Positions 1,782-63,094 of a stretch of 64,000 nucleotides of DNA are shown here, piece by piece. The position numbers and the translations under genes are program-made. The notes under the pieces were generated by a model, which worked only from the letters and a program-made list of their open reading frames with translations, searched no databases and was not told where the DNA came from. The first letter of the stretch is position 1, and each line of letters begins with the position of its first letter. The DNA comes from Candidatus Parcubacteria bacterium (GTDB lineage Bacteria > Patescibacteriota > Patescibacteriia > Patescibacteriales > UBA12075): contig CAWFCE010000001.1 of NCBI GenBank assembly GCA_963814275.1, positions 323,307-387,306 of the forward strand, read 5' to 3'.

Positions 1782-2972
1782 ATGAAAAAGTTATCCCTGA
1801 TCGTGTTTTTGGTGTTTTTTGCGTGTATTGACAGGTCGTATGCCGCAACCGACTGGTCGTTTAAATTGACCGGTACGGCTGATACTTTGAACGGCGCCGC
1901 CGGGCGAATGCAAGCGGAACTCGACTGGCGAAGAAACGGATTCCATGCATTCGTGTCGCCGGACTTCGGTTATGGTACGGCAGATTATTGGACATTTAAT
2001 ATGGCCAACTGGAGCGGGGTAAACTATGCCAAACGCTCGGTATTTACAGCCCAGGAAATTTACGGTGATTACAGCTTCTGGCGCTTTAATACCGGGCTGG
2101 GATACAGGCTCTTCGATACCGGCGCGGTCGATGTAAGCACTTCATTGGATGTCAACCCGGTCGATATACTTGATCTGGACCAGCCCCGGCTGATGGCCCA
2201 GCAATCCCTTTGGGGGGAATATAGCTATGGCCGTCTGCGAATGCAGTATGTGCAAATGAGAACGTCCGAGGGCAAATTGCCGGTGGACAAGAGCAACCCG
2301 TGGCGGCCGGACCATTTCAATTTCCCTCTGCAGAACGGGACGCATGGCGGCGGCAATTTCGTCAATTGGCTGCGCTTATCCTACGCACGGGACGTAACCT
2401 CATACAGCTTTATGTTCTATGATGGACAGAGTCCGTTCCAGAATTTTCAGGTCAATTCCCATTTTGAGGCGGACTATTATCCCAAGCGGATGGTTTCCGG
2501 CGTGTTCGGATCGGAATTCAGGGGTATCCGTTTCAAATTCGGCGCCGGTTATAACGACCGGGACGAATGGCTTGATGACAGCTTCGATTTCGAGGGAACC
2601 GTGTGGAAGCGTACCGGATTCCATGGCGGTTATCTGGAATGGAGCCTGGGAAGCGTCCAAAGACTGGTCGTAGATCGCGGCGAAGATTATCTGGAAAATA
2701 AGGCCAGCCTATGGCGAAAGCTGAGTCCGGAGAATCTTTATGTCGGCAGCCAGTGGCTAGGATTGTCGTATTCCAGGGATTCGGTGGAGCTTGGCCTCAG
2801 GACTTTCATCAGCAACCGGGGCGGATGGAAGTTAAATCCTGCTTTTGATTGGGAATTTATGGAAAAAACCCATTTCCGGATCGAAGGAGCCGTGATGGAT
2901 GATTTCTATGAAAGGTATCGCAACAATAATTACGCGACCCTCTCGCTCTCCCGGCACTTCGGAGGAAAATAG
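1782..2972 (+). CDS. secreted beta-strand-rich protein, possible porin-like beta-barrel
   Basis: Signal peptide ending in YA|AT; GAAAGGAG RBS; many alternating aromatic/polar segments (LRLSYARDVTSYSFMFY, IRFKFGAGY, YATLSLSRHF). Confidence 0.6.
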   Translation: MKKLSLIVFLVFFACIDRSYAATDWSFKLTGTADTLNGAAGRMQAELDWRRNGFHAFVSPDFGYGTADYWTFNMANWSGVNYAKRSVFTAQEIYGDYSFWRFNTGLGYRLFDTGAVDVSTSLDVNPVDILDLDQPRLMAQQSLWGEYSYGRLRMQYVQMRTSEGKLPVDKSNPWRPDHFNFPLQNGTHGGGNFVNWLRLSYARDVTSYSFMFYDGQSPFQNFQVNSHFEADYYPKRMVSGVFGSEFRGIRFKFGAGYNDRDEWLDDSFDFEGTVWKRTGFHGGYLEWSLGSVQRLVVDRGEDYLENKASLWRKLSPENLYVGSQWLGLSYSRDSVELGLRTFISNRGGWKLNPAFDWEFMEKTHFRIEGAVMDDFYERYRNNNYATLSLSRHFGGK

Positions 2973-3068
2973 CCGGGAAGTCCGGCTTCCCCGGAAATAA
3001 ACCAGGCTCTGTGCATTCTATACGCAGGGCCTTTTTTAATTTATCCATTAAAATGTTATAATGAAAGC

Positions 3069-4295
3069 ATGGGAAATGTTAAAAATATATTGAAAACGGC
3101 AGCGATTGATGCCGTTATAATGGCCTTGGCCGGTTATTGGATATTTGAAGGGGATTGGCCCTTTCTGCCCTGGCTGCTTTTGGCCGGTGTTACTTTGGCA
3201 TTCATACATAAGGAAAGCAAGGCGCATAAATATTTACCCGGATTAATGATCGGTTCCTTGGTATTCGGTTTGTTGACCATGATTTTCGTATTTTTACGGA
3301 TGTATGTTTTTTCGCATTTCTTCTATGATTCGTCCTTGCCTTTTTCGTTTTTATTCAATCCGGAATGGGGTATAATGGCTGCCGTTTTCGCGGCCGCCGC
3401 CTTTCTGGGCGGGCTAATGGGAATCGCGTTAAAAGGGTTCTATTCGTTATATAAAAATAAACTCGATTATGCCTTGTTGCTTCTGGGACCGGCGCTGTTG
3501 ACGCTTGCCTCCGTATCGATCGCCAGGATCAAATACGGCGGCACGATCTTAAGCACGCTCTCGGGCTGGCCGTATTATTTCATCACTTACCGGGTTAAGG
3601 ATATCATCGACAATTTCCGTATCGACGAAAGGTCATTCACACCAGGTAGCCTCTATCATAATATTATTTTGGATTATTTGTTCTTTTTGGTAATCCTGGT
3701 CTTGGTATATTTGTTGATGCGCGCCGTTAGCGGCCGCTGGAACGCCGTAAAGACCCACACCACATTCGTCCTGTCCGGTCTTGTGGTAGCCGGCTTGATC
3801 GCGATGATGTCTTATTTGCCGGCCAGACAATCATATATATCCCGGCAGATCGCCCGGGCCGGAAATTGCGCGACTGATGCGGAATGCGTCATTGTCGGTA
3901 ACAAGTGCCCTTTCAGCTGTGCGGTCGTGGCTAACCGCAATGAAGCCGATCGGATCACCAGGCTGGTCAATTTATTTCCCTCGACCTGCGAACTGTCTTG
4001 TCCCGGCAATAACCGGGCAGTTTGCTTGAACGGCAGCTGCCGGGTGGCCGACCAGGAGACGGCGGACAATGGGTTGGATAGCCGGAACGGCAATAATATC
4101 GCGTGGCTGCGGATCATCCAGGCGATATCGAATTGCGAGGCTGTACGGCTTTTCCAGGCGCACAGCCTCAGGGTGCAGGCACAGCTAAAGGACGGCAGCG
4201 AGCTGGAGGCGACCGAACCCGTGATCGACGAAATCTTCCGGGTGGCGGAAACGGCGGAAGAAAAATGCGGACACATTCCGGTGGCGACGGAATAG
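3069..4295 (+). CDS. polytopic membrane protein with Cys-rich C-terminal domain
   Basis: Multiple hydrophobic spans in the first ~250 aa, then CATDAECVIVGNKCPFSC...CELSCPG...CLNGSC. Confidence 0.6.
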   Translation: MGNVKNILKTAAIDAVIMALAGYWIFEGDWPFLPWLLLAGVTLAFIHKESKAHKYLPGLMIGSLVFGLLTMIFVFLRMYVFSHFFYDSSLPFSFLFNPEWGIMAAVFAAAAFLGGLMGIALKGFYSLYKNKLDYALLLLGPALLTLASVSIARIKYGGTILSTLSGWPYYFITYRVKDIIDNFRIDERSFTPGSLYHNIILDYLFFLVILVLVYLLMRAVSGRWNAVKTHTTFVLSGLVVAGLIAMMSYLPARQSYISRQIARAGNCATDAECVIVGNKCPFSCAVVANRNEADRITRLVNLFPSTCELSCPGNNRAVCLNGSCRVADQETADNGLDSRNGNNIAWLRIIQAISNCEAVRLFQAHSLRVQAQLKDGSELEATEPVIDEIFRVAETAEEKCGHIPVATE

Positions 4296-4380: not shown

Positions 4381-4737
4381 ATGAAAGATCTGGGACATGT
4401 CGTCGCTTTTATCAGTATTTTCCTTCTTATCATGACGGTCATATGGACGAGTGATCTCGAGCGGCAGCGCGAAATCAGGCAGGCAAGCGAAAAGGGAGTT
4501 ATGCTCAAACTGGCCCATGCCCTCAATAATCTGGGGGAATTCAGACAGGCGTTCGATTGCCTGACCGCCGTATTTGTGACCGGCATCAAGCCCCGCACCT
4601 TCCTGGAATGGGAGGCGCAAAAGGAAAAAAGATCTTTGGCAAAACAGAAGTTAACTATGGCCGTTAATAAGGCGGAAAACAAGCAAAAACTGATCAAAGT
4701 GTTATTGCTGGCGGCCGGGTCCGGCCAAGTCCGGTAG
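4381..4737 (+). CDS. hypothetical membrane-anchored protein (118 aa)
   Basis: AAAGGAGG RBS; one N-terminal hydrophobic span. Confidence 0.55.
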   Translation: MKDLGHVVAFISIFLLIMTVIWTSDLERQREIRQASEKGVMLKLAHALNNLGEFRQAFDCLTAVFVTGIKPRTFLEWEAQKEKRSLAKQKLTMAVNKAENKQKLIKVLLLAAGSGQVR

Positions 4738-4807
4738 AGACCGGATATATCAAAGAGAGCGGAGTATTTCCCGGAAATGCTCCGTTTTGCTTTTTCATAT
4801 GGATATG

Positions 4808-4872: not shown

Positions 4873-4916
4873 GCGAACGGGCATGGGAACGCACAATTTT
4901 GCGTTCCTTCCGGTTA

Positions 4917-5006
4917 TTTTTATAATTTGACTGTTTACCTAAACTGGAGTAAATTTAAGTAAATAAAGTTCGATGACAAACCTTCCATAAAGGAGAAGCC
5001 GGGGGG
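4917..5006 (+). promoter_or_regulatory. conserved promoter plus hairpin/U-tract leader, copy A (upstream of pyrD)
   Basis: TTGACT(4917-4922)-17 nt-TAAATT(4940-4945); 10-bp stem 4967-4976/4991-5000; T6 run; block-wise conserved with 8773-8859. Confidence 0.55.
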
Positions 5007-5084
5007 TTTGTTTTTTCGTATTTGGACATTGAAAATCAATTTAACCGGAAATAAATTTGAACTGGCAGAAAGGAGATAAGGAAC

Positions 5085-6065
5085 ATGGCAGGATTAACAT
5101 TACGGGGAGTGGGTTTCAAATCAGTATTTACAGCATCCGGAACGCTTAATTTCTTCGGAGACGGTTGGCCGCCTCATCGCTTGTTCAGTTCGTTCTTCGG
5201 CAAACGATTCGATTTTAGCGGCGCTACCTTTATTTCAAAAACCACTACGCTATCGCCGCGAGCCGGTCATATGCCGCTGGATAACGATTTACAGCCGAGG
5301 GAATATTTTCCCAAGTGTATCAATGCTAATTACTGGAAAGGCGTAACCTTGAATTCAGTCGGATTGAGCGGGCCGGGCGCGATTGAATTGTTTCGCCGGA
5401 AAAAGTGGCAGTCCAGAATATGGCCATTTCTCATATCATTTATGAGCGTCGGCAGTTCACCGGATCTAAGACTGGGCGAAGCAGCAAAATTTGCGGATAT
5501 GCTCATCGCGGAGCAGCCGAATTTCCAAACGGATTTCGGCATTCAGGTGAATGTGTCTTGTCCGAATACAGACCACGCGACAAGGGAAATGATCGACGGT
5601 TCTCTCGGCATTCTGGAAGTATTCAAAAAACTGTCCGTGCCGATTGACCTCAAGATCGGCGTAGCTGATGCGATTGAAGCGGGAACACCCTTCACCAGGG
5701 AGATCGAGGCTTCCGGGCTCTGCGACTGCTTGACCTGTTCGAATACGATTCCTTGGGGCAGACTGCCCGAGCGGATCGACTGGCCAGCCTTGTTCGGTAC
5801 CCGTGAGTCGCCTTTGAAACATTTGGGTGGCGGCGGGCTGTCAGGTAAACCGCTTAAACCGATCGTGATCGAATGGCTAAAAACGGTAAGAGACGCCGGT
5901 ATCACGATGCCGATCAAAGCCGGCGGCGGAATCCTGGCAAGGCGGGATGTTCGCGAGTATATGGAAGCCGGCGCTTCGGCATTTGAGATCGGCAGTATCG
6001 CGATACTGCGCCCTTGGAACGTACGGCGTGTTATCGAAACCGGAAATAATATCTTTAGGAGGTAA
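5085..6065 (+). CDS. pyrD: dihydroorotate dehydrogenase, class 1-like
   Basis: NVSCPNT (Cys-type active-site loop), GGLSGKPLKP and GGGI..RDV.EY..AGASA.EIGS motifs; GGAG RBS. Confidence 0.8.
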   Translation: MAGLTLRGVGFKSVFTASGTLNFFGDGWPPHRLFSSFFGKRFDFSGATFISKTTTLSPRAGHMPLDNDLQPREYFPKCINANYWKGVTLNSVGLSGPGAIELFRRKKWQSRIWPFLISFMSVGSSPDLRLGEAAKFADMLIAEQPNFQTDFGIQVNVSCPNTDHATREMIDGSLGILEVFKKLSVPIDLKIGVADAIEAGTPFTREIEASGLCDCLTCSNTIPWGRLPERIDWPALFGTRESPLKHLGGGGLSGKPLKPIVIEWLKTVRDAGITMPIKAGGGILARRDVREYMEAGASAFEIGSIAILRPWNVRRVIETGNNIFRR

Positions 6066-6067
6066 AA

Positions 6068-7114
6068 ATGCTGAAATTAATCCATAGGTTACCGGACAAT
6101 TGGCACGCCCATCTGCGCGAACAGGAACTCCTACTCGCAGTTTATCATCACTTCAATATCTATGGGCGGGTACTATGCATGGGAAACCTCATGACACTTA
6201 TCGAAACGGCTTTCGCCGCTCGCCATTACCGAGAGGACATTCTGGAGCTTCCGGTGCGGTTCCAGCCGGAAATATGTATTATGCTCACCCAGGATACAAC
6301 CCGGGAAACGATCTATGAAGCGGCCGAGGCAGGTATTAAATTCGTCAAATTCTTGCCGGTGGGGACCTCGACTGGCGCTATCAAAGGTCTGCGGCTCGAC
6401 GATTTCGCCGAATTATACCTGTTGTTTCCCGTGATTGAAGAAACCGTGATGCATCTTTTGATTCACAGTGAGCTGATGTCAGAACGGGATGGCACGGAAA
6501 TACCTTTGATCGAAAGGGAAGAGCGAGCGATTATAATTGCCGGAATCTTTCATCGCCGGTTTCCCGGCCTGAAAATTACGATCGAACACGCTTCGACCGC
6601 CAAGATGATAGATTTCGTGAAATGGACGGATAGTCCCAATGTCCGCGCCACCCTAACGCCGCAACATGGTATTCTTACCTATGATGATGTGTTCCACGGG
6701 CGAGACTGGCCACCGCATAATCCGTTAAATTATTGCCTGCCGGTCGCAAAACTCGAGAGTGACAAGCGGTCGGTGGTTAAGGCAACAGTGAGCGGTGATG
6801 AACGTTTTTTTTACGGTACTGATGCGGCACCGCATTGGATCGTAGATAAGACCGGTCACAAGCCGAAAGCCGGTGTATTTTTCGGCGCCAACGAGTATGT
6901 CCGCTCATTGGAAATATTCGAGCGGGAAGGTGCGATCGATAAATTCGAAGATTTCACATCCCGTTTCGGCGCCGAATACTACGGCTACCCATTAAATCAG
7001 GAAACACTTACGGTCGTGCAGGAAGTATGGCAGCCGCGGGATAGTGCTGCACGGTATCCGCTTTTGTCTGGGCGATCAGCCGCTCCGCTGGAAGATCATC
7101 GAAAGGAACGGTGA
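6068..7114 (+). CDS. pyrC: dihydroorotase, E. coli-type (class II); 3' end probably frameshifted
   Basis: WHAHLRE, KFLP (carbamylated-Lys region), IHSE, EHAST, TPQH and GTDAAPH motifs in canonical order; a better C-terminus (LGDQPLRWKII) lies in the +1 frame, ending at 7130. Confidence 0.85.
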   Translation: MLKLIHRLPDNWHAHLREQELLLAVYHHFNIYGRVLCMGNLMTLIETAFAARHYREDILELPVRFQPEICIMLTQDTTRETIYEAAEAGIKFVKFLPVGTSTGAIKGLRLDDFAELYLLFPVIEETVMHLLIHSELMSERDGTEIPLIEREERAIIIAGIFHRRFPGLKITIEHASTAKMIDFVKWTDSPNVRATLTPQHGILTYDDVFHGRDWPPHNPLNYCLPVAKLESDKRSVVKATVSGDERFFYGTDAAPHWIVDKTGHKPKAGVFFGANEYVRSLEIFEREGAIDKFEDFTSRFGAEYYGYPLNQETLTVVQEVWQPRDSAARYPLLSGRSAAPLEDHRKER

Positions 7115-7153
7115 ACCGATTTCGGTATAACCCTTAATACAAAGGATAAGAAA

Positions 7154-7901
7154 ATGGTTAAGCAATTGAAAGATGAAGAGCGTTTGATTATAGCAGCCGA
7201 TTACAAACCTGCGGATTGGGGAGGCGTAAGCGGAGTCAAGAAAAAAGTATTACAACTCGTGGAAAAACTCAGCGAAACCGGCGTATTTATCAAAGTTAAT
7301 TCAGTTCTCCGGGCAATCGGTTACGGACTAATCGCCGATCTGCATTCAGCTGGCCTTAAAGTTTTTGCGGATTTAAAACTCAATGATATTCCCAATACGA
7401 TGGGCATTCAAGCCGAATCGCTTATTATGTTTTAACCTGAAATTCGTGACTGTAATGTGTTCAGCTGGAATCGACGGTATGCAGGCTGTCCAGAAGACCA
7501 TCGGGGATTTCTGCGAGGTGCTGGGCGTGACAGTGTTAACCAGTCTGAATAAAAGTAAATGTCAGGCGATTTATGGATGTTCGCCAGAGGCGGGGGTATT
7601 GCGTTTTTCCCGAATGGCGAAAACCGCTGGCCTCGGCGGCCTGATTCTTTCACCGAATGAATTGGTAATTACCAAAAATCATTTCGAATTATCAGGTCTT
7701 AGCTTGAACACGCCAGCAATCCGTCCGTTTTGGTCGTTAGTAAATGATGACGATCAAAGCAGGATATCAACGCCCTTTAAGGCGATTCAGGCCGGAGCTG
7801 ATCGGATTGTCGTGGGGCGGCCAATTATTGGCGCCAAAGATCCGCGCGAGGCAGCACTGAAAACTTTAGATGAAATAAGAGAAGGCCTGAAAAAAAGCTG
7901 A
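7154..7901 (+). pseudogene. pyrF: orotidine-5'-phosphate decarboxylase split by a +1 frameshift at a T4 run (7430-7433)
   Basis: ORF 7154-7435 carries DLKLNDIPNT; ORF 7383-7901 continues with VTVMCSAG...IVVGRPI; removing one T restores ...ESLIMFNLKFVTV... Confidence 0.8.
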
Positions 7902-7923
7902 ATAGCTGAAAGGAGATTATGAA

Positions 7924-8640
7924 ATGGAAAAAATGAATAAAACAAAAGCCCGGGATTATCCGCCGGAAATGTATTGTCGTCCGGAATGGGTGATTGAGGA
8001 CAACTTCGTTACGTTAATTATGGAAAAGTGCGATGCATACTGGGTCCATAATGGCATTTCCGAAAGAGCGCATGCCGAGTTGACATCCGGAAAATGCAGC
8101 AATGGTTTTTTCAACTGTCTCAAGGCGCTCAAATACATCAATATCAACGAGATTTTCGCTTATCACCTAGCCGCCAAAATACGCAAAGAGATCGGTGAAG
8201 TCCAGGTTGACTGGGTGATTGGTTCGCCGATGGCCGGAATTACGTTCAGTTACGCTGTGGCCCGTCATCTTGGCGCTGCTGTTCAACTGTTTACCGAAAA
8301 AGATCCCGAAGTAAAAGGGCGAATGTTGTGGAAACGGGAAGTCATTCCGGAGGGCGATTCCGTCCTGCAAATCGAAGAGTTGATCACCACATCCAAAACG
8401 CTCAACAGTGTTCGGGACGGGATTGAAAGAGATAATCCGTTCCCGGTATATTGGATTCCGGTAATTGGGGTTTTTGTGCATCGTCCCGACAGGTTACCTG
8501 TCACGCATTATGGCGATAGAAAAGTTGTCTCGCTTTTTGAAAGGGAAATTTGGACGGCCGATTATCCATGCAAACTTTGCAAAGAAGGCTCGGTTCGGTA
8601 TCGGCCCAAAACCAACTGGAAGGAGTTGACGGTCAACTAA
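7924..8640 (+). CDS. pyrE: phosphoribosyltransferase, orotate PRTase-like
   Basis: HAELTSGKCS (GHF.LSSG.HS-like) and PRPP loop VLQIEELITTSKT; sits in the pyr cluster. Confidence 0.6.
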   Translation: MEKMNKTKARDYPPEMYCRPEWVIEDNFVTLIMEKCDAYWVHNGISERAHAELTSGKCSNGFFNCLKALKYININEIFAYHLAAKIRKEIGEVQVDWVIGSPMAGITFSYAVARHLGAAVQLFTEKDPEVKGRMLWKREVIPEGDSVLQIEELITTSKTLNSVRDGIERDNPFPVYWIPVIGVFVHRPDRLPVTHYGDRKVVSLFEREIWTADYPCKLCKEGSVRYRPKTNWKELTVN

Positions 8641-8668
8641 AAGTGACTGTCAATTTAATAAAAATCAA

Positions 8669-8700
8669 GGGAATCGCTTGCGCGATTCCCTTATTTTATT
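8669..8700 (+). terminator. intrinsic terminator
   Basis: gggaatcgc/gcgattccc stem followed by a T-rich tail. Confidence 0.7.
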
Positions 8701-8772
8701 ATAAATTTATTAGAATATGAAATATTTTTAGACCCGCCGGTGCTTTTTGTTAATCAGAGGAGATATAGCTAT

Positions 8773-8859
8773 TTGACTTTTCGCTTAATTTGGGATAAAT
8801 TTAAAGCATAAAGACAATCGGCAAACCTTCAGATCAAGGGGAATGGGGAGGTTTGTTTT
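8773..8859 (+). promoter_or_regulatory. conserved promoter plus hairpin/U-tract leader, copy B (upstream of the PurD-like gene)
   Basis: TTGACT(8773-8778)-17 nt-TAAATT(8796-8801); 9-bp stem 8822-8830/8847-8855; T run; same layout as 4917-5006. Confidence 0.55.
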
Positions 8860-8927
8860 CGTTTTTACGCACTTTTTAAACCGTGAATCATATAGCCAAC
8901 ATTTACTAACATAGAAAGGAGGCGACT

Positions 8928-10427
8928 ATGAAGAAAATCGCATTTGCCGGCACCGATGGCCGGACCCTGCTCAGCGCCCTGGTTACCGCGACGGCGACCA
9001 ATGAAGCGGGAGTTAATGAATTCGAAGGGATCGTTATCCGCGGCAATGACGCCATGGCCCGGTATGCCGCAGTGATGGATTGGCCGGTTAAGTTCTTTCC
9101 GACTGCCAGCAATTCGGTGGCTGATTATGCCAAGGCCATCGTCGACGCGTTCATGGCCGGCAAGATCGATTATGTGGTACCGATGCCAGAAGCCTTGCTT
9201 TTCGATGGTCTTGTCGACGCGGTGGCGGACGCCGGTTATGGCGGACATATTGTCGGTTTGAACCGGCTGGGCGCCTTCATCGAGGCCGATAAGATCGCCT
9301 GCAAACATCTGTGCCGCGATGCCGGAATTCCGGTGGCTGACTCCTGGGTCGATGCCGATGCCAGGGACTACCAAAGGGTACTGGATTCATGCCTTTTATT
9401 TATCCAGCATCATGGCGGGGCTGTACTTAAGTATCCGTACAGCGCCGGCGGCAAGGGCGCTCGCGTCATATTGAATTCCTGGGAGATCAGGGATGTGTAC
9501 GATACGCTCATCAAGGACTATCAGGACAGCTACAAAAAGCTGCACGGCAAGGGCAGATGGCCACTCTTGATCGAATCACTCATGTCCGGCGTGGAGATCA
9601 GCTTTACTCTGTTGGTCGATGGACTTGGCGCTTATCGTATCCTGCCGACCGCTATGGATTATCCCGAACGGTATGTGGGGCCAGCCTCGAGAAACAACCC
9701 GATCACCGGCGGTATGGGCGCGGTTTCGCCCCATCCGATGGAAACGCCGGCGCTCATCGAAATGGCCGGTGAGACCATTGCCAAACCGCTCATCGCCAGG
9801 ATGAAAAAAATGGGCATATTGCGGCCCTGCGTCCTTTATCCCGGCTGTTTCATTTCCCTGGATGGCCAGATGCAGCCTACCAGGATCCGTGTCTCGGAGA
9901 TCAATATCCGCCCCGGCGAGCCGGAAATGCAGCCGGTCGTGCGCCGCCTGCGCAATTTGGGAGCGCTGATCGCCGCTACCTGTGAAGGCCGTTTGAAAGA
10001 AGTCGCGCCGGAGATCAGGACGGAACAAATCGCGGCCAATGTCGCTTTGGTGACCGGACCGGGCGGTCCGGACGGGCAAAAAGGCTATCCCGGGTCATGC
10101 ACCAGGGGGGAGCCGGTGGAGATCGACCGTAAATACCTGAAGCGCAAAGGGATCCAGCTGATTCCTTCGGCCATGGCGATGAACGAAGAAGATGATTTCA
10201 TTTCGGACGGAACACGGGTGGCATACCTTAACTGCAATGTGACCGTCAAAGACACGGACGATCGGAGCGTGATGGCGGACAGACTGCAGACCAAGCTTCT
10301 GGCTGCCTTTGACAATGGCAAAGTACGGGTTGCTCCCCGTGAAAACCCTGAGGGCAACCGCCTTGATCTGCGCCGGGATATCGGCAGCCATTACCGGATC
10401 CAGGCAAAAACGTTTCCGGAAAATTAA
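8928..10427 (+). CDS. divergent phosphoribosylamine-glycine ligase (PurD)-like ATP-grasp protein
   Basis: GKGA, EISF..LVDG, NPITGGMGAVSP, EINIRPGEPEMQP and DGTRV motifs collinear with PurD; about 80 aa longer than typical PurD. Confidence 0.7.
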   Translation: MKKIAFAGTDGRTLLSALVTATATNEAGVNEFEGIVIRGNDAMARYAAVMDWPVKFFPTASNSVADYAKAIVDAFMAGKIDYVVPMPEALLFDGLVDAVADAGYGGHIVGLNRLGAFIEADKIACKHLCRDAGIPVADSWVDADARDYQRVLDSCLLFIQHHGGAVLKYPYSAGGKGARVILNSWEIRDVYDTLIKDYQDSYKKLHGKGRWPLLIESLMSGVEISFTLLVDGLGAYRILPTAMDYPERYVGPASRNNPITGGMGAVSPHPMETPALIEMAGETIAKPLIARMKKMGILRPCVLYPGCFISLDGQMQPTRIRVSEINIRPGEPEMQPVVRRLRNLGALIAATCEGRLKEVAPEIRTEQIAANVALVTGPGGPDGQKGYPGSCTRGEPVEIDRKYLKRKGIQLIPSAMAMNEEDDFISDGTRVAYLNCNVTVKDTDDRSVMADRLQTKLLAAFDNGKVRVAPRENPEGNRLDLRRDIGSHYRIQAKTFPEN

Positions 10428-21722: not shown

Positions 21723-21898
21723 TTTTTAGTGTTTGACTAATTGCTAAATTTAAGGTAAATTATATTAATTATAAACGAGCCTTCAGGGAGTAAAAGATGG
21801 TTCGTTTTTATTTGGCCCTTTGAAAATTATCAGGAACTGGCATCAATCATATTGGCTTTTTAGACATTATCGCCCTGACAACAAAAGGAGGTTTCAAA

Positions 21899-23178
21899 TG
21901 TACTTGTTTGATATTATAGTCCGTTCTGACAGCCATGCCTTAGGCGCGGTCATCGTGTGCATTTTGGGCGCGGCGATGTGCATTTTGGGCAACTGGTTGA
22001 TCGAATGGTATCGGAAAGGCGCCGAAACCAAGCGCCGGCGGGTAATATTCACATTGAATTACGCGTTGGCTTTTTACGCTGTTGGCTTGTTCATTACCGG
22101 TAATTATTTGTGGTCGGAGAGATCAAGCGTCGGCGCCTGGACGACCATCCTTGTTTGTTTTATCGCGGCATTTTGTCTGTGCGCGTACCTTCTCCTGTTT
22201 CATCCGTTATTTGGCTTGGCCTCGGAGGAATACCAGTCTTTTCACGCCAAGGCCGTATTATTTTTTGTCGCATCTTTCTTTCTTACCGTTATTTTTAACG
22301 GTTATTATGAAGATTTTGCGATGCTCGGATATTCACTGCGGCAAAAAAACGACTGGCAGCTGGCCAAAGTCGTAAATTTGGATTTGTCGGCCAAAGAGGC
22401 GGCTGAAGCCATGGAAAAATATCGAGAACGTGCCGTACCGGGCATTGGCGAAGTTACCGATGGCAGCAGCCAAGCTAAACACTCGCCGATCCCGGAGTAT
22501 TATGAGGGAATTGTCGATTTACGCAATCATTTTGGTTATTCGGCCAACTTGGAGAAATACGCCGATAGCTTAACCGGGAGCGAGAGAGAGCTTTGGCTCG
22601 GGTATGGTTATTTTTTTACGAATAAAGATTGGGCCAAAGCACATTTCGACCAGACCGAAGAAGCCGATATGGAGGCTATTTTGCAGTTTTATAAAGCCGG
22701 TGACGCGATTTCCACTGAAGGAATGCTTGAACATTGGGTACTCTTCAACAGGACATTTCGGCCTAAATGCCGCTGGCTGCCGGCGAAAATTTTAGACAGA
22801 ATGAACAACTTGATGGTATATATGATTTATTATGAAACCGGAAAGGATTTTTTCCGAGAATTGAATTATCGGTTCGATAACAAGATGCCGGAGACGTCCG
22901 AATATCATTATCGGCAAATTAAGATTATTAGAAGCTATCTGACGGATCCGGAGGAAAAGTTCAAAATATTGATGCAGGAGCTTAACCATCTGGTTCTGGC
23001 CCACATGATACTGATCGGTCCGAAACTTTCCTTGCCGGACCAGACGACTGTGTATGCCAGAAAAATATTTGCGATTTCGATTTGTCCTATTTTTTTAGCG
23101 GTACTGTTTTGCGTGAATTTTTGGTATCATAGCCTGCGCGCCGTATTTTCAAAAGCGCGGACAGTGGCGGGCCCGTGA
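21899..23178 (+). CDS. polytopic membrane protein, hypothetical
   Basis: ATG at 21899 follows AAAGGAGG; the track ORF (from 21820) extends upstream without an RBS. Confidence 0.55.
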
Positions 23179-38660: not shown

Positions 38661-38705
38661 TAATTGAGTTGGATTATCGGTCAAGAGCGAAAGGATAACC
38701 TTAAA

Positions 38706-38777
38706 GAAATTTGAAATTAGAAATTGGAAATTCGGAATCGGTTTACGCCCAATTTCCAGTTACAAATTTCAAATTTC
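38706..38777. repeat. GAAATT/GGAAATT-word imperfect palindrome
   Basis: gaaatttgaaattagaaattggaaattc ... caatttccagttacaaatttcaaatttc; related copies at 41689-41774, 46008-46062 plus 46197-46216, 55565-55644 and 63044-63092. Confidence 0.8.
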
Positions 38778-38833
38778 ACTCTTCCTTGTTTGTTCGCATA
38801 TTGGGAATAGATGAAGAAACTAATCAAATATAT

Positions 38834-41688: not shown

Positions 41689-41774
41689 GGAAACTTGAAA
41701 CTAGAAACTGGAAATTAGAAATTTTATATCGTTAATCTATCCAATTTCCAGTTACAATTTTCCAGTTACAAAAT
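41689..41774. repeat. GAAACT/GGAAATT-word imperfect palindrome
   Basis: ggaaacttgaaactagaaactggaaattagaaatt ... ccaatttccagttacaattttccagttac. Confidence 0.75.
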
Positions 41775-41781
41775 ATGTTAG

Positions 41782-43701
41782 ATGTCATTAAACAATATAA
41801 ATTGGCTATCCCCATTTAATCAAATACAAATTATGTCAAGTTCAATTTTAGAAGAAAGTAAAAAGGCCAAAAGAAAGGGCATTCTCGGAATATTCAAAAA
41901 CAAGAAAATTATGGCGGGAGCCCTGATTGTCGTGGTTATCGGCGGATCGTTCTATTATTTCCGCAACCGCGGCCAGTCGCAGGTCAATACCGTGGTGCCG
42001 AAGAACTGGACAGTCAGGAACGGGGATATCCAGATCGCGATCGATACCGACGGCAAAGTAGTTGCCGAGGACGGCGTGGAATTGTCGTTCTCCGTGAGCG
42101 GTGACAATCTCGAGGTTTCGGACGTTTACGTAAATGAGGGCCAGCAGGTCAAGAAAGGCGACAAGATAGCATCGGTCAAGACCGATACCCTGGAGTATAG
42201 CGTCCGAACCGCTTATTCAAGCTATCAATCGGCTCTGGCGGCTTATAACGAAAAAATAGCCGGTCCGACCGACGATGATATCGCCAAAGCCAAGGCATCG
42301 ATCGAACAGGCCCAGATATCCCTGGACCAGTCTAAGATCAGCCGGGACAAGACCAAAGTCAGCGGCGAGGACAAGGTCAGGGCGGCCCAAGACGCGGTTA
42401 AAACCGCCAAAGATAATTTGAACATGAATCAGAGCGTATACTCGAGCCAGGACGTGGATGACGCTTATCAGACCTTGGTCGATACCGTGAAATCGACCGA
42501 CCTTTCCCTGGAGGGCATACTGCGTGATTCGGATGAAGTCGTCGGAGTGGATAATTCATTATTGAATGACGCTTACGAAAAAGACCTGGGGACATTGGTC
42601 GTGGGGTCGCTGTCCGCCGCGCAGGGCAGCTATACCGTGGCTAAGCGGGCTCAGCAAGCGCTGGATACGAAAGTGATCGGTTTGTCTTACGCCAGCCCAT
42701 ATGCCGATATCGACGCCGCGGTCCAATTGGCCCAAGCAGCCCTGGACGCGTTCGACCGGCATTTGTATGATATGCAGAATCTGTTGAGCGCGTCGGTCGC
42801 GACCAGCAATTTGACGCAAACCAAGCTGGACGGATTCAAATCCAGCGTCAGTTCAAACCGGACGAGCGTCAATACCAAGACGACAGCTATCAATAACAAT
42901 TTAAAAACATTGAAGGATGCCAAGGACGGTCTGGACGATTACGTAACCGCGTACAATGATGCCCTAAGGGATCTCGACAACGCGAAAGTGAGCGCCGATC
43001 AGGATAATCAGACGGCTGATTCCAATGTCCGTACCCGGGAATTGTCCCTGGAGGACGCCCAGCGCAGTTATGATGACCTGATGGCGCCGATGACTGACGC
43101 GGAAATGGCCGCCGCCCGTTCGTCCCTAACCTCGGCTTCGGTGAACCTGGAACGGGCGAAACTGGATCTGGAAAAGGCCACTATCCTGTCGCCGATTGAC
43201 GGCCAGATTGCTCAGCTTAACTATAAGCAAGGTGATATCATTACCGATAATACCAAATCGGTGGCTACGGTGATAAACAACGATACCTTGTATATCGAGG
43301 TAAATATAGAAGAAGCTGATATTTCCAAAATTAAGGTTGGCGACAAGGCAGTAGCGACATTCGACGCATTGAACAGCGCGGAAATACCCGGTGAGATCAG
43401 TTTCATTTCCCTGACATCCGGTTCGTCGAACAATGGTATCGTCACTTATCTGGTGCGCGTCCTCCTGGATAATTCCGACAAGAAGAATATCCGGGAAGGG
43501 ATGACCGCCGGGGTCAAATTCGTAACCGCCGGCGTTAGCAATGTCTTGATGGTGCCGGTCGAAGCGGTGCGCAATGTCGACGGCAAACCCTCGGTCCAGA
43601 TGGACAACGGGGAATGGCAGCCGGTGGTGACCGGATTCACCGATGGTAAATATGTGGAAGTGATAAATGGGTTGAGCGAGGGAGATAAGTTGGTATATTA
43701 A
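41782..43701 (+). CDS. HlyD/MacA-family periplasmic adaptor with long coiled-coil
   Basis: TM anchor, lipoyl-like GDKIASVKTD and ATILSPIDGQIAQLNYKQGD, about 300 aa of heptad-like sequence; alternative start at 41833. Confidence 0.75.
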   Translation: MSLNNINWLSPFNQIQIMSSSILEESKKAKRKGILGIFKNKKIMAGALIVVVIGGSFYYFRNRGQSQVNTVVPKNWTVRNGDIQIAIDTDGKVVAEDGVELSFSVSGDNLEVSDVYVNEGQQVKKGDKIASVKTDTLEYSVRTAYSSYQSALAAYNEKIAGPTDDDIAKAKASIEQAQISLDQSKISRDKTKVSGEDKVRAAQDAVKTAKDNLNMNQSVYSSQDVDDAYQTLVDTVKSTDLSLEGILRDSDEVVGVDNSLLNDAYEKDLGTLVVGSLSAAQGSYTVAKRAQQALDTKVIGLSYASPYADIDAAVQLAQAALDAFDRHLYDMQNLLSASVATSNLTQTKLDGFKSSVSSNRTSVNTKTTAINNNLKTLKDAKDGLDDYVTAYNDALRDLDNAKVSADQDNQTADSNVRTRELSLEDAQRSYDDLMAPMTDAEMAAARSSLTSASVNLERAKLDLEKATILSPIDGQIAQLNYKQGDIITDNTKSVATVINNDTLYIEVNIEEADISKIKVGDKAVATFDALNSAEIPGEISFISLTSGSSNNGIVTYLVRVLLDNSDKKNIREGMTAGVKFVTAGVSNVLMVPVEAVRNVDGKPSVQMDNGEWQPVVTGFTDGKYVEVINGLSEGDKLVY

Positions 43702-46002: not shown

Positions 46003-46307
46003 GATATTCGGGAAATTGGAAATTAGAAACTGGAAATTTGGTTTTTTAAATCCAAATTTCGGCTTAAGTAGTTTTTGGACGCTTATTTCCTGAAAATTTG
46101 CCAATCATCCCATGTCGATATCCGATCTATGCCTCGATGATTACCGGGCAAATCCTTTAAAGTTTTAAAAACAACATAAGTCCATATTCGCCATATCTAA
46201 TTTCCGGTTACAAATTAATTTAGATAAACCTAATAAAAATATAATAAAATTTTAATTAAAATATAACCCCGCCGTGATAAGCTCATTAATATTTAAAAAA
46301 AAGAAAA

Positions 46308-54097: not shown

Positions 54098-54679
54098 ATG
54101 ATCAGTGAGCTTGAGTGCGAGGGGAAAACAGACGAAATATTGGCGCGCCTGGCCTTAGTTGACGAGGATTATTTGGGTTGCCTGATCAGGCGTTACGAAA
54201 AACCCCTGGCGCGCTATATCCGGCGGCTAACCAATGTAGCGGAAGACGAAATTTCCGATATTCTGCAGGAAGTATTCATCAGCGTTTATAAAAACCTGAA
54301 CGATTTCGACCCTGAGCTCAAATTTTCATCATGGATATATCGTATCACCCACAACCAGGTGATCAGCCACCACCGCAAGAAGCAGAGCAGGCCGCAGACG
54401 ATCGAGGTAGACCTAAGCGATGAATCGCTCAATCATCTGGCTTCCGAATTGGATACCGGCCGTGAAGCCGATTTGCGCCTATTGGGCGAGCAAGTCGAGC
54501 GAACGCTTGCCGGAATGGAAGAGAAATACCGCGATGTATTGGTGTTGAAGTTTTTCGAAGAAAAAAGCTACCAGGAGATTAGCGATATTCTCAAGAAGCC
54601 CATGGGCACGATCGCTACGCTCTTGAGCCGAGCCAAAAAGCAGTTCAGAATTATTTACGAAAAACAAGGTAAAAAGTAA
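54098..54679 (+). CDS. RNA polymerase sigma-70 family (ECF-like) sigma factor, paralog of 38076-38660
   Basis: Collinear with the first copy, e.g. DILQEVFISVYKNLNDFDPELKFSSWIYRITHNQVISHHRK. Confidence 0.85.
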   Translation: MISELECEGKTDEILARLALVDEDYLGCLIRRYEKPLARYIRRLTNVAEDEISDILQEVFISVYKNLNDFDPELKFSSWIYRITHNQVISHHRKKQSRPQTIEVDLSDESLNHLASELDTGREADLRLLGEQVERTLAGMEEKYRDVLVLKFFEEKSYQEISDILKKPMGTIATLLSRAKKQFRIIYEKQGKK

Positions 54680-55564: not shown

Positions 55565-55644
55565 TAGAAATTCGAAATTGGAACTGGAAATTTGTTAAAT
55601 TTTATTAAATATTAACAAATTTCCAGTTTTAAATTCCCGGTTTC
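55565..55644. repeat. GAAATT-word palindrome, probably a terminator
   Basis: Perfect 15-bp stem ctggaaatttgttaa (55583-55597) / ttaacaaatttccag (55612-55626) followed by TTTT. Confidence 0.8.
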
Positions 55645-56039
55645 ATAATTTGAAAGAAAAATTATTCTGGCACGTATTATTAATTATAAGGGCCCGTTAA
55701 TTATAATTAATAATTAATTAATTAAAATTCATGAACTATAGTTTAGCGATAGCGGTAAATGCCGCTTTTGCTAATTAGCTCCGAATACTGAATTCGGTGG
55801 GATATTCCGAGAATGGCGCGGCAGTAATGCCGGCCGCATCGATTGCCTGGCAACAAGAGGCATGGGGCGCGGGCACATCGAAAATGTGAATTACCGCCAC
55901 AGTGTTATGAGAGCTTTAAAAATCAAAATCAGTTATTTCCTCCAAATAAAAATCGTCCGCTTCCTGAATAGGTATGCGGGCGGTTTTTGTAATATGGCCT
56001 GGCAGAGTGCTGCCAGACCATTAATCATGTATTCGGTTT

Positions 56040-60018: not shown

Positions 60019-60188
60019 TCTCTCCTTAATTGTTTTTTTAAAAAAATAGACGAGGTAAAATAACAGACATCTTGTCACGTTATTATTTGTTCTATTTGCT
60101 TCATGCTACGTGCTGCATGATTCGTGAAGAGTGATATGTAGTATTTAAATAAGACAATGTTTTATTATTGCCAAGTTATAAATTATTT

Positions 60189-60604
60189 ATGTCCACGTTA
60201 TATATAGTTGCCACGCCAATCGGGAATCTGGAAGATATTTCCATGAGAGCGCTTCGCCCCGTCATCCGACAGGGCTTCGCTTCGAAATTTTTATGACCAC
60301 ACTTTATATAGTCGCCACGCCTATCGGGAATCTGGAAGATATTTCCATGAGAGCGCTTCGCCCCGTCATCCGACAGGGCTTCGCTTCGAAATTTTTATGA
60401 CCACACTTTATATAGTCGCCACGCCTATCGGGAATCTGGAAGATATTTCCATGAGAGCGCTTCGCCCCGTCATCCGACAGGGCTTCGCTTCGAAATTTTT
60501 ATGACCACACTTTATATAGTCGCCACGCCTATCGGGAATCTGGAAGATATTTCCATGAGAGCGCTTCGCCCCGTCATCCGACAGGGCTTCGCTTCGAAAT
60601 TTTT
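60189..60604 (+). repeat. four tandem 104-bp units duplicating the rsmI start region
   Basis: ATGs at 60189, 60293, 60397 and 60501, with the genuine start at 60605; units 2-4 are identical; unit 1 differs at 6 nt. Confidence 0.9.
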
Positions 60605-61393
60605 ATGACCACACTTTATATAGTCGCCACGCCTATTGGGAATCTGGAAGATATTTCCATGAGAGCGCTTCGCATTCTGGGGGAGGTTGATTTTGTGTTG
60701 TGTGAAGACACCAGGGTGACGCAGAAGCTGCTGTCCCATTACAATATCAAAACGCCGACAATGTCATTTCATCAGCATTCCGACGATATCAAGATCGATC
60801 GTATCTTGAAGCTGTTCGCCGAGGGGAAGAATCTGGCCCTGGTAACGGACGCGGGTACTCCCGGCATCTCCGATCCCGGCGGCAAATTGGTGCAGGCTGT
60901 AATTGAGGAGTCCAATTCGGGGAAATTACAGGAAAAACCGGTCCATGTCGAATCGGTTCCTGGACCATCCGCGGTTACCGCCGCCTTGTCCATTTCCGGG
61001 ATTCCGACCGACAAGTTCATGTTTATGGGCTTCCCCCCGCACAAAAAGGGCCGGATGTCTTTTATTGAGCGCATTGCCTCAAGCGTTTATCCGGTCGTTA
61101 TTTATGAGTCCAAGCATCGTATAATCAAATTTCTCGATGAATTGGCGGCTCTGAACCGCCAGATACTGAAACGCAATAAAGAGATCGACAACGAACTCGA
61201 GCAAGGCGCCTCGGCAGAGCGGAAAGAGCTGTCGGCTTTCAAACGCGCGCCGGTTACTTCGGTCGTGGTATGCCGTGAATTGAGCAAGCTGCACGAAACC
61301 GTTTATCGCGGCGATCTGGATTACATAATCAAACAGATCAAAGAAAATAAAGACGACCAGCGCGGGGAATTTACGGTGATAATCGGGAAATAG
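60605..61393 (+). CDS. rsmI: 16S rRNA (cytidine1402-2'-O)-methyltransferase
   Basis: LYIVATPIGNLEDIS.RAL..L..VD.V.CEDTR, DAGTP.ISDPG, GPSA and RELSKLHE motifs. Confidence 0.9.
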   Translation: MTTLYIVATPIGNLEDISMRALRILGEVDFVLCEDTRVTQKLLSHYNIKTPTMSFHQHSDDIKIDRILKLFAEGKNLALVTDAGTPGISDPGGKLVQAVIEESNSGKLQEKPVHVESVPGPSAVTAALSISGIPTDKFMFMGFPPHKKGRMSFIERIASSVYPVVIYESKHRIIKFLDELAALNRQILKRNKEIDNELEQGASAERKELSAFKRAPVTSVVVCRELSKLHETVYRGDLDYIIKQIKENKDDQRGEFTVIIGK

Positions 61394-63043: not shown

Positions 63044-63094
63044 GATTTGAGATTTGTATAGAAATTAGGAATTATAATTTAGAAATTTTCTAAA

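Follow-up and report, generated by a model that had tools for sequence, protein, structure and literature searches.

Introduction

How might a reduced genome control de novo nucleotide synthesis without PyrR or PurR? The question is raised by a 64-kb stretch of DNA from a Candidatus Parcubacteria bacterium (positions 323,307 to 387,306 of contig CAWFCE010000001.1; hereafter the window, in which all coordinates are given), where an operon of pyrD-, pyrC-, pyrF-, and pyrE-like genes is preceded by a conserved leader cassette. Many organisms of the candidate phyla radiation are thought to lack nucleotide biosynthesis, and to our knowledge gene regulation in this group is almost unexplored. A full-text literature search combining Patescibacteria with riboswitch and terminator yielded a single, unrelated paper. 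The lineage in question carries divergent pyrD, pyrC, pyrF, and pyrE genes (its relatives also purM, purC, and purE) behind a leader which fits no described pyrimidine control.

The cassette consists, in this order, of a strong promoter, a weak terminator hairpin whose top resembles a ribosome-binding site (RBS), a U-run, and a short conserved box. We propose that it may be a leader attenuator, in which a weak intrinsic terminator acts conditionally, and regard this proposal as evenly balanced between right and wrong. Its structure and conservation are solid and its function is plausible, while the genes that it would control are in part unrelated to nucleotide metabolism. If it is a conditional terminator with an external sensor, the cassette offers a target of ~80 nt for in vitro work and a route to the regulator, and the more widespread box would provide a regulon signal with which further genomes of the group could be annotated. 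A new leader class, if real, would show how the opening question is solved in reduced genomes; if the hairpin is merely a fixed dampener or stabilizer, what was found is an ordinary promoter cassette copied three times.

Three Copies of the Leader Cassette

Within the window the cassette occurs three times, namely before the pyr-like operon (copy A, winA), before a purD-like gene (copy B, winB), and at 21733-21828 (copy C, winC) (Table 1). A preliminary description of the locus, made from the sequence alone, had recognized the blocks shared by copies A and B. These are present at 4900-5090 and 8755-8935 and include the promoter, TTGACT and TAAATT separated by 17 nt in both copies. The terminator-like hairpin and U-run also lie where they had been described relative to the transcript, ~5-15 nt into its predicted 5' end, which leaves no space for a classical antiterminator. 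The copy A hairpin had been placed at 4967-5000, 10 nt upstream of its actual position. Sharing was said to be limited to the PurD-like gene, which is contradicted by the third copy, found before the gene of an ORFan membrane protein. A block described as TTTAAACCG-like is indeed shared, but it is really the conserved box located 12-15 nt past the stem.

Copy C was detected by a promoter-pattern search of the window (match 21732-21764). The 64 kb contain exactly two matches to the pattern CAAACCTTC-N(8-24)-GGTTTGTTTT, in copies A and B, compared with 0 expected from 100 shuffles. Compared with shuffled sequences, the hairpins of copies A and B are more stably folded (z = -2.2 and -3.6, respectively), and relative to these two hairpins the stem of copy C is altered in a compensatory fashion. 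Similarity among the three copies spans the region from the -35 element to the box, ~12-15 nt past the stem, and ends there. Overall, the paralogous copies are ~60-70% identical and retain the same blocks. Divergence to this degree, with blocks and compensatory stem changes kept, argues for selection on function rather than recent copying.

Two additional promoter-like sites were noted in copy A. One is on the sense strand and overlaps the box (Table 1), and the other is antisense (TTGTCA-16-TAAATT, 4979-4952, minus strand) and uses the palindromic TAAATTTA. Neither is conserved in copies B and C.

Structure and Strength of the Hairpin

The stem is supported by covariation. In an independent run of MAFFT and RNAalifold on 11 distinct sequences from the window and from orthologous loci (designated by L-numbers), a 9-bp stem was obtained in which 97 of 99 cells are paired and four of the nine pairs are changed on both sides (C-G to U-A in three of them and A-U to G-C in the other). 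The model-fitted alignment, which leans towards the model and contains two unrelated terminator-like rows, gave 97.6% paired cells and six of nine pairs changed on both sides, a result reached by 0 of 500 shuffles. When partner columns of this alignment were slid, pairing fell to 35-62%. Moreover, the stems of winA, winC, L002, L004, L005, L165, and L169 contain G-U pairs, which on the opposite strand would become C-A mismatches; the conserved structure is therefore a sense-strand RNA rather than a DNA palindrome.

The stem comprises 7-11 bp with an A-U-rich base (CAAA/UUUG), and in all 12 instances it is abutted by a U-run of 4-8, so that both the stem and the U-run of an intrinsic terminator are present. 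The hairpin tops are purine-rich and 13-20 nt long (32 nt in L161). In every member except L161, a block resembling a Shine-Dalgarno (SD) sequence (AAGGAG, AGGGAG, GAGGAAG, or AGGAGG) directly follows the 5' arm. This block pairs with a pyrimidine stretch into a small upper helix in seven members and is unpaired in the others. The preliminary description had also singled out an anti-SD-like CCUUCC in the 5' arm; this is not a conserved feature, as the orthologs show UCC, CCC, or UCU.

The hairpins are weak for terminators. Their folding energies range from -9 to -13.5 kcal/mol, with -15.1 for the longer hairpin of L161. Per nt this is 0.28-0.41 kcal/mol, about half the stability of four gene-end terminators of the window (-17 to -19 kcal/mol, 0.56-0.72 per nt). 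Their U-tract scores are equal to or better than those of the gene-end terminators. Both measures are components of a d'Aubenton-Carafa-type score, of which only these two, stability per nt and U-tract score, were used. The loop of ~3-8 nt and the G+C-rich stem that usually mark a terminator were not found in the leader hairpins. Folding of whole leaders yielded no antiterminator: the terminator alone forms, ~5-15 nt precede its 5' arm, and the best alternative pairing, between the 5' arm and the loop GGAG, amounts to ~4 bp.

A leader peptide starting from a UUG in the 3' arm (MFF... in most members) was considered and rejected, as its frame relative to the box differs (L001) and the start is missing in L169. 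The SD spacing for this UUG amounts to 1-2 or 11-15 nt, and only 4 of 12 instances have an in-frame stop inside the box.

Conservation in Other Patescibacteria

For comparison, 160 loci encoding PyrD-like proteins were fetched from genome and metagenome collections and 14 more were obtained by exact protein look-up. A metagenome scan with a single PyrD-like protein gave no match, and a profile scan of metagenomes added one close relative only, L081, which matches L005. In nine other Patescibacteria assemblies the module was found ahead of the pyrD-like ortholog. The relatives which bear it, with at least 57% protein identity, are L001-L005, L164, L165, and L169, and more weakly L161-L163; L170 matches L169, as L081 matches L005. 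In these loci TTGACT and, 17 nt further, TAAAGT are followed 11-19 nt later by a CAAAYCY...RGRTTTG hairpin with its T-run of 4-8 and then, past a short spacer, by the box. Among the nine relatives the -35 element reads TTGACT, TTGATT, or TTGCTT and the -10 element TAAAGT, TAAAAT, TAGAGT, or TAATAT. The spacer is 17 nt in 11 of the 12 distinct instances and 16 nt in L161, within the 16-18 bp of sigma-70-type promoters, and the hairpin starts 11-21 nt past the -10 across instances.

A covariance model (R1) was built from eight instances and run on the window and the related loci. Its matches are confined to sense-strand sites directly 5' of genes, namely the three window copies and the pyrD-like leaders of relatives with at least 57% identity. 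The hairpin is absent from PyrD-like relatives below ~55% identity. Among more distant relatives, L172, L014, L107, and L067 have no U-run but keep 5' hairpins in which a purine block pairs with the box. So far the element is confined to a single clade of Patescibacteria, and this genome holds three copies of it.

The preliminary description had allowed that the hairpin might simply be the terminator of the upstream gene (4381-4737 for copy A). That gene was found to have its own terminator at 4756-4788, as does the gene upstream of copy B (8667-8692). Both of these are stronger than the leader hairpins, which are therefore not the terminators of those genes. Upstream of the L164, L165, and L169 modules the neighboring gene is divergent, and a promoter must therefore lie in that intergenic space. 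Taken together, these observations rule out a role as upstream terminator.

The Conserved Box

The box has the consensus [A/T]C[C/T]TT[G/A/T]A[A/C]AA with G-N before it, or in a longer form of ~13 nt G-N-W-C-Y-T-T-D-A-M-A-A-T. A matrix built from the 12 module instances was scanned over 148 other PyrD-like loci. Within the 120 nt that precede the gene, scores of 10 or more were found in 34% of PyrD-like loci, distant Patescibacteria among them, and in 8% of control upstream regions (Mann-Whitney p = 2e-11). In PyrD-like loci the box usually lies a few bases past a -10-like hexamer, and it is older and more widespread than the hairpin. High-scoring boxes were also found before a pyrF-pyrE fusion gene (L008, 5153-5167) and before purC (105-1130; L036, minus strand), and within the window the box is not a general upstream feature. 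The box may be a signal of a nucleotide regulon; candidate roles are an operator, an RNA site bound by a protein, and an anti-SD-like pairing partner.

Several roles for the box were examined and set aside. As the -35 element of a second promoter it fits copy A; L001 leaves no room for such a promoter, and several members have no matching -10. Pairing of the box with the real SD is possible in some distant loci, though not for CAUU-type boxes. A pseudoknot between loop and box is not supported either, the mean duplex energy being -5.3 kcal/mol for cognate and -4.9 kcal/mol for non-cognate combinations (permutation p = 0.23), and the copy A box (ACAUU) has no partner in its loop. The box resembles the Bacillus PurBox (CGAAC core) in L006 and L011 only.

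A Possible Attenuation Mechanism and Its Alternatives

From the promoter consensus, the covarying but weak RNA stem with its U-run, the position between promoter and gene, and the conservation of the leader in orthologs and paralogs, we infer that transcription would actually terminate in the leader and would do so conditionally. The housekeeping-type promoter (TTGACT, 17 nt, TAAATT) would start the transcript, and after ~5-15 A-rich nt the weak intrinsic terminator would fold. Only polymerases that read through would get to the box, the real RBS, and the gene, and expression would thus be set by the efficiency of termination at the hairpin. As there is no alternative antiterminator fold, control would have to come from outside the leader. 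The combination of a weak stem, a strong U-run, a conserved GGAG block, and no antiterminator points to such an external sensor or factor. The likeliest candidate would be a trans-acting factor that contacts the purine-rich top. This factor would be an RNA-binding protein or, possibly, the 30S subunit. A bound protein might stabilize the marginal hairpin, as PyrR promotes termination, and a 30S subunit on the nascent SD-like block might keep it from closing. A second option would be UTP-sensitive kinetics over the nearly all-U 3' arm and tail. More tentatively, and with clearly less confidence than we give to attenuation as such, the module could represent a new Patescibacteria leader class, in which a marginal terminator with an SD-like top would be the receptor of a trans-acting factor (RNA-binding protein or free 30S) and the older box would mark a nucleotide-metabolism regulon.

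Several observations weigh against attenuation. Intrinsic terminators seldom have loops of 13-20 nt, and a simple terminator scan of the window did not call the leader hairpins. Both the transcription start and termination are predictions from sequence. In L161 the -10 abuts the 5' arm, and the hairpin may therefore not be fully transcribed there. No match to CsrA, PyrR, or Hfq was found by tblastn in the window (64 kb of the 457-kb contig) and the 174 loci. Furthermore, the copy C gene is an ORFan and the purD-like gene was seemingly acquired, so that the cassette may be a generic duplicated promoter unit rather than a nucleotide-specific switch. Finally, the downstream box falls outside what an attenuator explains.

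Among the alternatives, a 5' mRNA stabilizer is unlikely, yet it is the one to which we give most weight. A stem-loop near the 5' end together with the SD-like block would shield the mRNA from 5' exonuclease or attract ribosomes, and the U-run would be incidental. The hairpin does lie within ~5-15 nt of the predicted 5' end, every instance except L161 has a GGAG-type block that plays no part in the gene's own initiation, and the distant relatives mentioned above drop the U-run while keeping 5' hairpins. However, a stabilizer has no need for a U-run of 4-8 abutting the stem in 12 of 12 instances, or for the upstream A-tract, and the GGAG block is base-paired in the upper helix of several members (L169, L164, and L001). 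Somewhat less probable is an independent tiny RNA gene of ~45-55 nt, whose loop GGA/GGAG would be a decoy for an RNA-binding protein or the anti-SD, the gene itself being served by a second promoter which overlaps the box. The promoter-like site at the copy A box is of equal quality to the first, and the box reads TTGAAA or TTGACA in 7 of the 12 instances. Such a promoter cannot fit in L001, where the box is 19 nt from the start codon and the RBS stands where the spacer would be; a correctly spaced -10 is missing in several members, including winB, winC, and L005, and the module is always sense and immediately 5' of a gene. The least probable of all is a DNA operator, in which an inverted repeat would bind a dimeric repressor and the RNA hairpin would be irrelevant. 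The arms CAAACC...GGTTTG form an inverted repeat just 3' of the promoter, but a variable distance of 13-20 bp separates the half-sites, changes in one arm are compensated in the other rather than the sequence being kept, and the G-U pairs of the arms break DNA symmetry.

Two further explanations, both improbable and in our view to the same degree, would tie the leader directly to nucleotides. In a small-molecule riboswitch a nucleotide, a nucleobase, or PRPP would bind the hairpin top as a minimal aptamer and so shift terminator stability. Pyr-like and purD-like genes lie downstream, and the terminator is embedded in a conserved element that matches no known family. The loop, however, is 13-32 nt long and unalignable beyond the GGAG-type block, its top mini-helix is present in some members only, there are no invariant unpaired nucleotides for a pocket, the loop-to-box pseudoknot is unsupported, and the third copy controls an ORFan; the binding of a small ligand to the loop, one of the suggestions of the preliminary description, is thus unlikely. 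The same description also suggested initiating-NTP sensing or reiterative transcription, where added residues pair with the 5' arm as in Bacillus subtilis pyrG, to which a purely UTP-kinetic control may be added. The leader is indeed short and without an antiterminator, the pyrimidine tract CCTTC is found in the 5' arm of all three window copies, and the 3' arm and tail, upstream of a pyr-like operon, are almost all U. Reiterative initiation requires a homopolymer of at least 3 at the start site (PMC8812562; PMC7039003). The bases 6-8 nt past the -10, where starts are predicted, differ among members, with AAA in copy A only and no G-run, and the CCTTC arm is not conserved in the orthologs. UTP-specific control would also leave the purD-like and ORFan genes unexplained.

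Comparison with Known Leader Systems

In agreement with the preliminary description, the element corresponds to no named RNA family. Rfam 15 (including the PyrR, PRPP, ZTP, purine, and preQ1 families) gave no match at the gathering score in the 64 kb. At E values up to 10, the three copies and four orthologous loci gave chance-level matches only, such as Phe_leader at E ~8.

PyrR attenuation (the B. subtilis pyr operon, RF00515) also places several leader terminators per genome before pyrimidine genes, with a purine-rich hairpin top, and a terminator-promoting fold stabilized by protein would fit the anatomy of the cassette. In some members the sequence is similar to the PyrR box; L003, for example, has CCCAGGGAGG where the box reads UCCAGAGAGG. 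Unlike the PyrR system, the cassette has no pair of antiterminator and anti-antiterminator and is itself the terminator. The Rfam PyrR model does not match even at E = 10, the phosphoribosyltransferase of this operon is PyrE-like, and the query for the PyrR search reported above was the B. subtilis protein. The leaders of B. subtilis pyrG and of E. coli pyrBI and pyrE share with the cassette a short, terminator-only layout before nucleotide-synthesis genes without a repressor, a pyrimidine-rich 5' arm (in the window copies), and a U-rich terminator region. They differ in that most predicted starts of the cassette have no homopolymer, no leader open reading frame (ORF) is translated through the terminator, and the 5'-arm tract is not conserved. 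The element is best described as closest in its working to the terminator-only pyrimidine leaders, yet it appears to lack the defining features of PyrR, pyrG, and pyrBI/pyrE control.

Other systems resemble parts of the cassette. The STAB-SD concept of mRNA stabilization, cited in PMC5737220, is one of these. Like the STAB-SD and 5' stem-loop stabilizers of Bacillus (cryIIIA, hbs), the cassette has an SD-like block near the 5' end that is not used for initiation of the gene and a 5'-proximal hairpin; unlike theirs, its block is inside the hairpin and is followed by a conserved U-run. As in CsrA-type leaders, which carry GGA in a hairpin loop and at the real SD, the cassette has GGA motifs at its hairpin top or close by (one to three) as well as at the SD of the gene. 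However, the first purine block has no GGA in winB (AAGGGG) and L164 (GAGGGGG), and no CsrA gene is present in the sampled DNA. As with mobile promoters, a unit of ~100 bp (-35 to box) stands before three unrelated transcription units, including one apparent acquisition and one ORFan; unlike them, the copies have diverged, with their blocks and compensatory stem changes kept.

Genes Associated with the Cassette

The coordinates of the three copies and of the genes behind them are collected in Table 1.

Table 1. Cassette copies and downstream genes in the window.
Feature	Coordinates	Strand	Details
Copy A promoter	4927-4955	+	-35 TTGACT 4927-4932; 17-nt spacer; -10 TAAATT 4950-4955
Copy A leader hairpin	4977-5010	+	5' arm CAAACCTTCC 4977-4986; 14-nt loop with AAGGAG 4987-5000; 3' arm GGGGGGTTTG 5001-5010
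Copy A U-run	5011-5016	+	T6; abuts stem
Copy A box	5023-5037	+	TGGACATTGAAAATC; overlapped by promoter-like TTGAAA-17-TAAATT 5029-5057 (+)
Copy A downstream operon	5085-8640	+	pyrD-like 5085-6065; pyrC-like 6068-7114; pyrF-like 7154-7435 and 7383-7901; pyrE-like 7924-8640
Copy B promoter	8773-8801	+	TTGACT 8773-8778; 17 nt; TAAATT 8796-8801
Copy B leader hairpin	8821-8856	+	GCAAACCTTC / GGAGGTTTGT; 16-nt loop with AAGGGG
Copy B U-rich tail	8856-8866	+	TTTTCGTTTTT
Copy B box	8868-8882	+	CGCACTTTTTAAACC
purD-like gene behind copy B	8928-10427	+	499 aa
Copy C promoter	21733-21761	+	TTGACT 21733-21738; 17 nt; TAAATT 21756-21761
Copy C leader hairpin	21773-21807	+	AAACGAGCC / GGTTCGTTT; 17-nt loop TTCAGGGAGTAAAAGAT with AGGGAG; 65.9 bits in covariance model
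Copy C U-rich tail	21805-21813	+	TTTTTATTT
Copy C box	21814-21828	+	GGCCCTTTGAAAATT; then RBS and ATG at 21898
Gene behind copy C	21898-23178	+	426-aa membrane protein

The PyrD-, PyrC-, PyrF-, PyrE-, and PurD-like proteins are divergent, and all of their family matches are below curated cut-offs. The PyrD-like family is widespread in Patescibacteria, with the best non-self match (65% identical) in a Falkowbacteria assembly. The remainder of the window is likewise in keeping with a Patescibacteria genome. The pyrF-like gene, which would encode OMP decarboxylase, is split by indels into two overlapping ORFs in the window. In the strain-level relative L173, found in ERZ25039495 and with an identical leader, this gene is intact and encodes 251 aa; compared with it, the window sequence has substitutions clustered at 7409-7463, one additional G close to 7446, and a further indel near 7889. 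The split is either an assembly error or a recent pseudogene.

The 119 best-scoring relatives of the PurD-like protein show 68-73% identity to it, and the few of them with source names belong to Desulfobacterales or Deltaproteobacteria. Two of their contexts were inspected and found to be non-Patescibacteria neighborhoods without the cassette motif. Based on these relatives, the purD-like gene was probably acquired horizontally and placed behind a copy of the cassette. For the 426-aa membrane protein, the only match among 5.8 billion proteins is itself, and no reliable Pfam match was obtained. These two genes therefore gave no extension of the regulon comparison, the relatives of the former being without the motif and the latter having no homolog.

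Other features were seen in the module-bearing relatives. Between the module and the pyrD-like gene, L005 (~2955-3035) and L164 (~3877-3918) contain a short, very basic ORF (MIKRRKGKPSKDLKKEARKRIKEDCI and MVGKRRYRKTQKD, respectively). In L169 (159-2683) a purM gene and a purC-purE fusion gene adjoin the pyr-like operon and are divergent from it; the clade thus appears to encode steps of de novo purine synthesis as well.

Other Observations in the Window

A repeated intergenic motif of GGAAAYT/GAAATT units (e.g., GGAAATTGGAAATTAGAAACTGGAAATT) was found at 38705-38790, 41689-41782, 46011-46238, 55565-55657, and 63053-63094. It lies before several genes, including HlyD and MacB-type transporter genes, and near an ECF-type sigma factor gene (54098-54679). 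The motif may be a shared regulatory site. A 104-nt unit is repeated in tandem at 60077-60700, in five copies of which the inner ones are 86-96% identical, and the array extends into the start of an ORF (60605-61393) for a TP_methylase-family protein.

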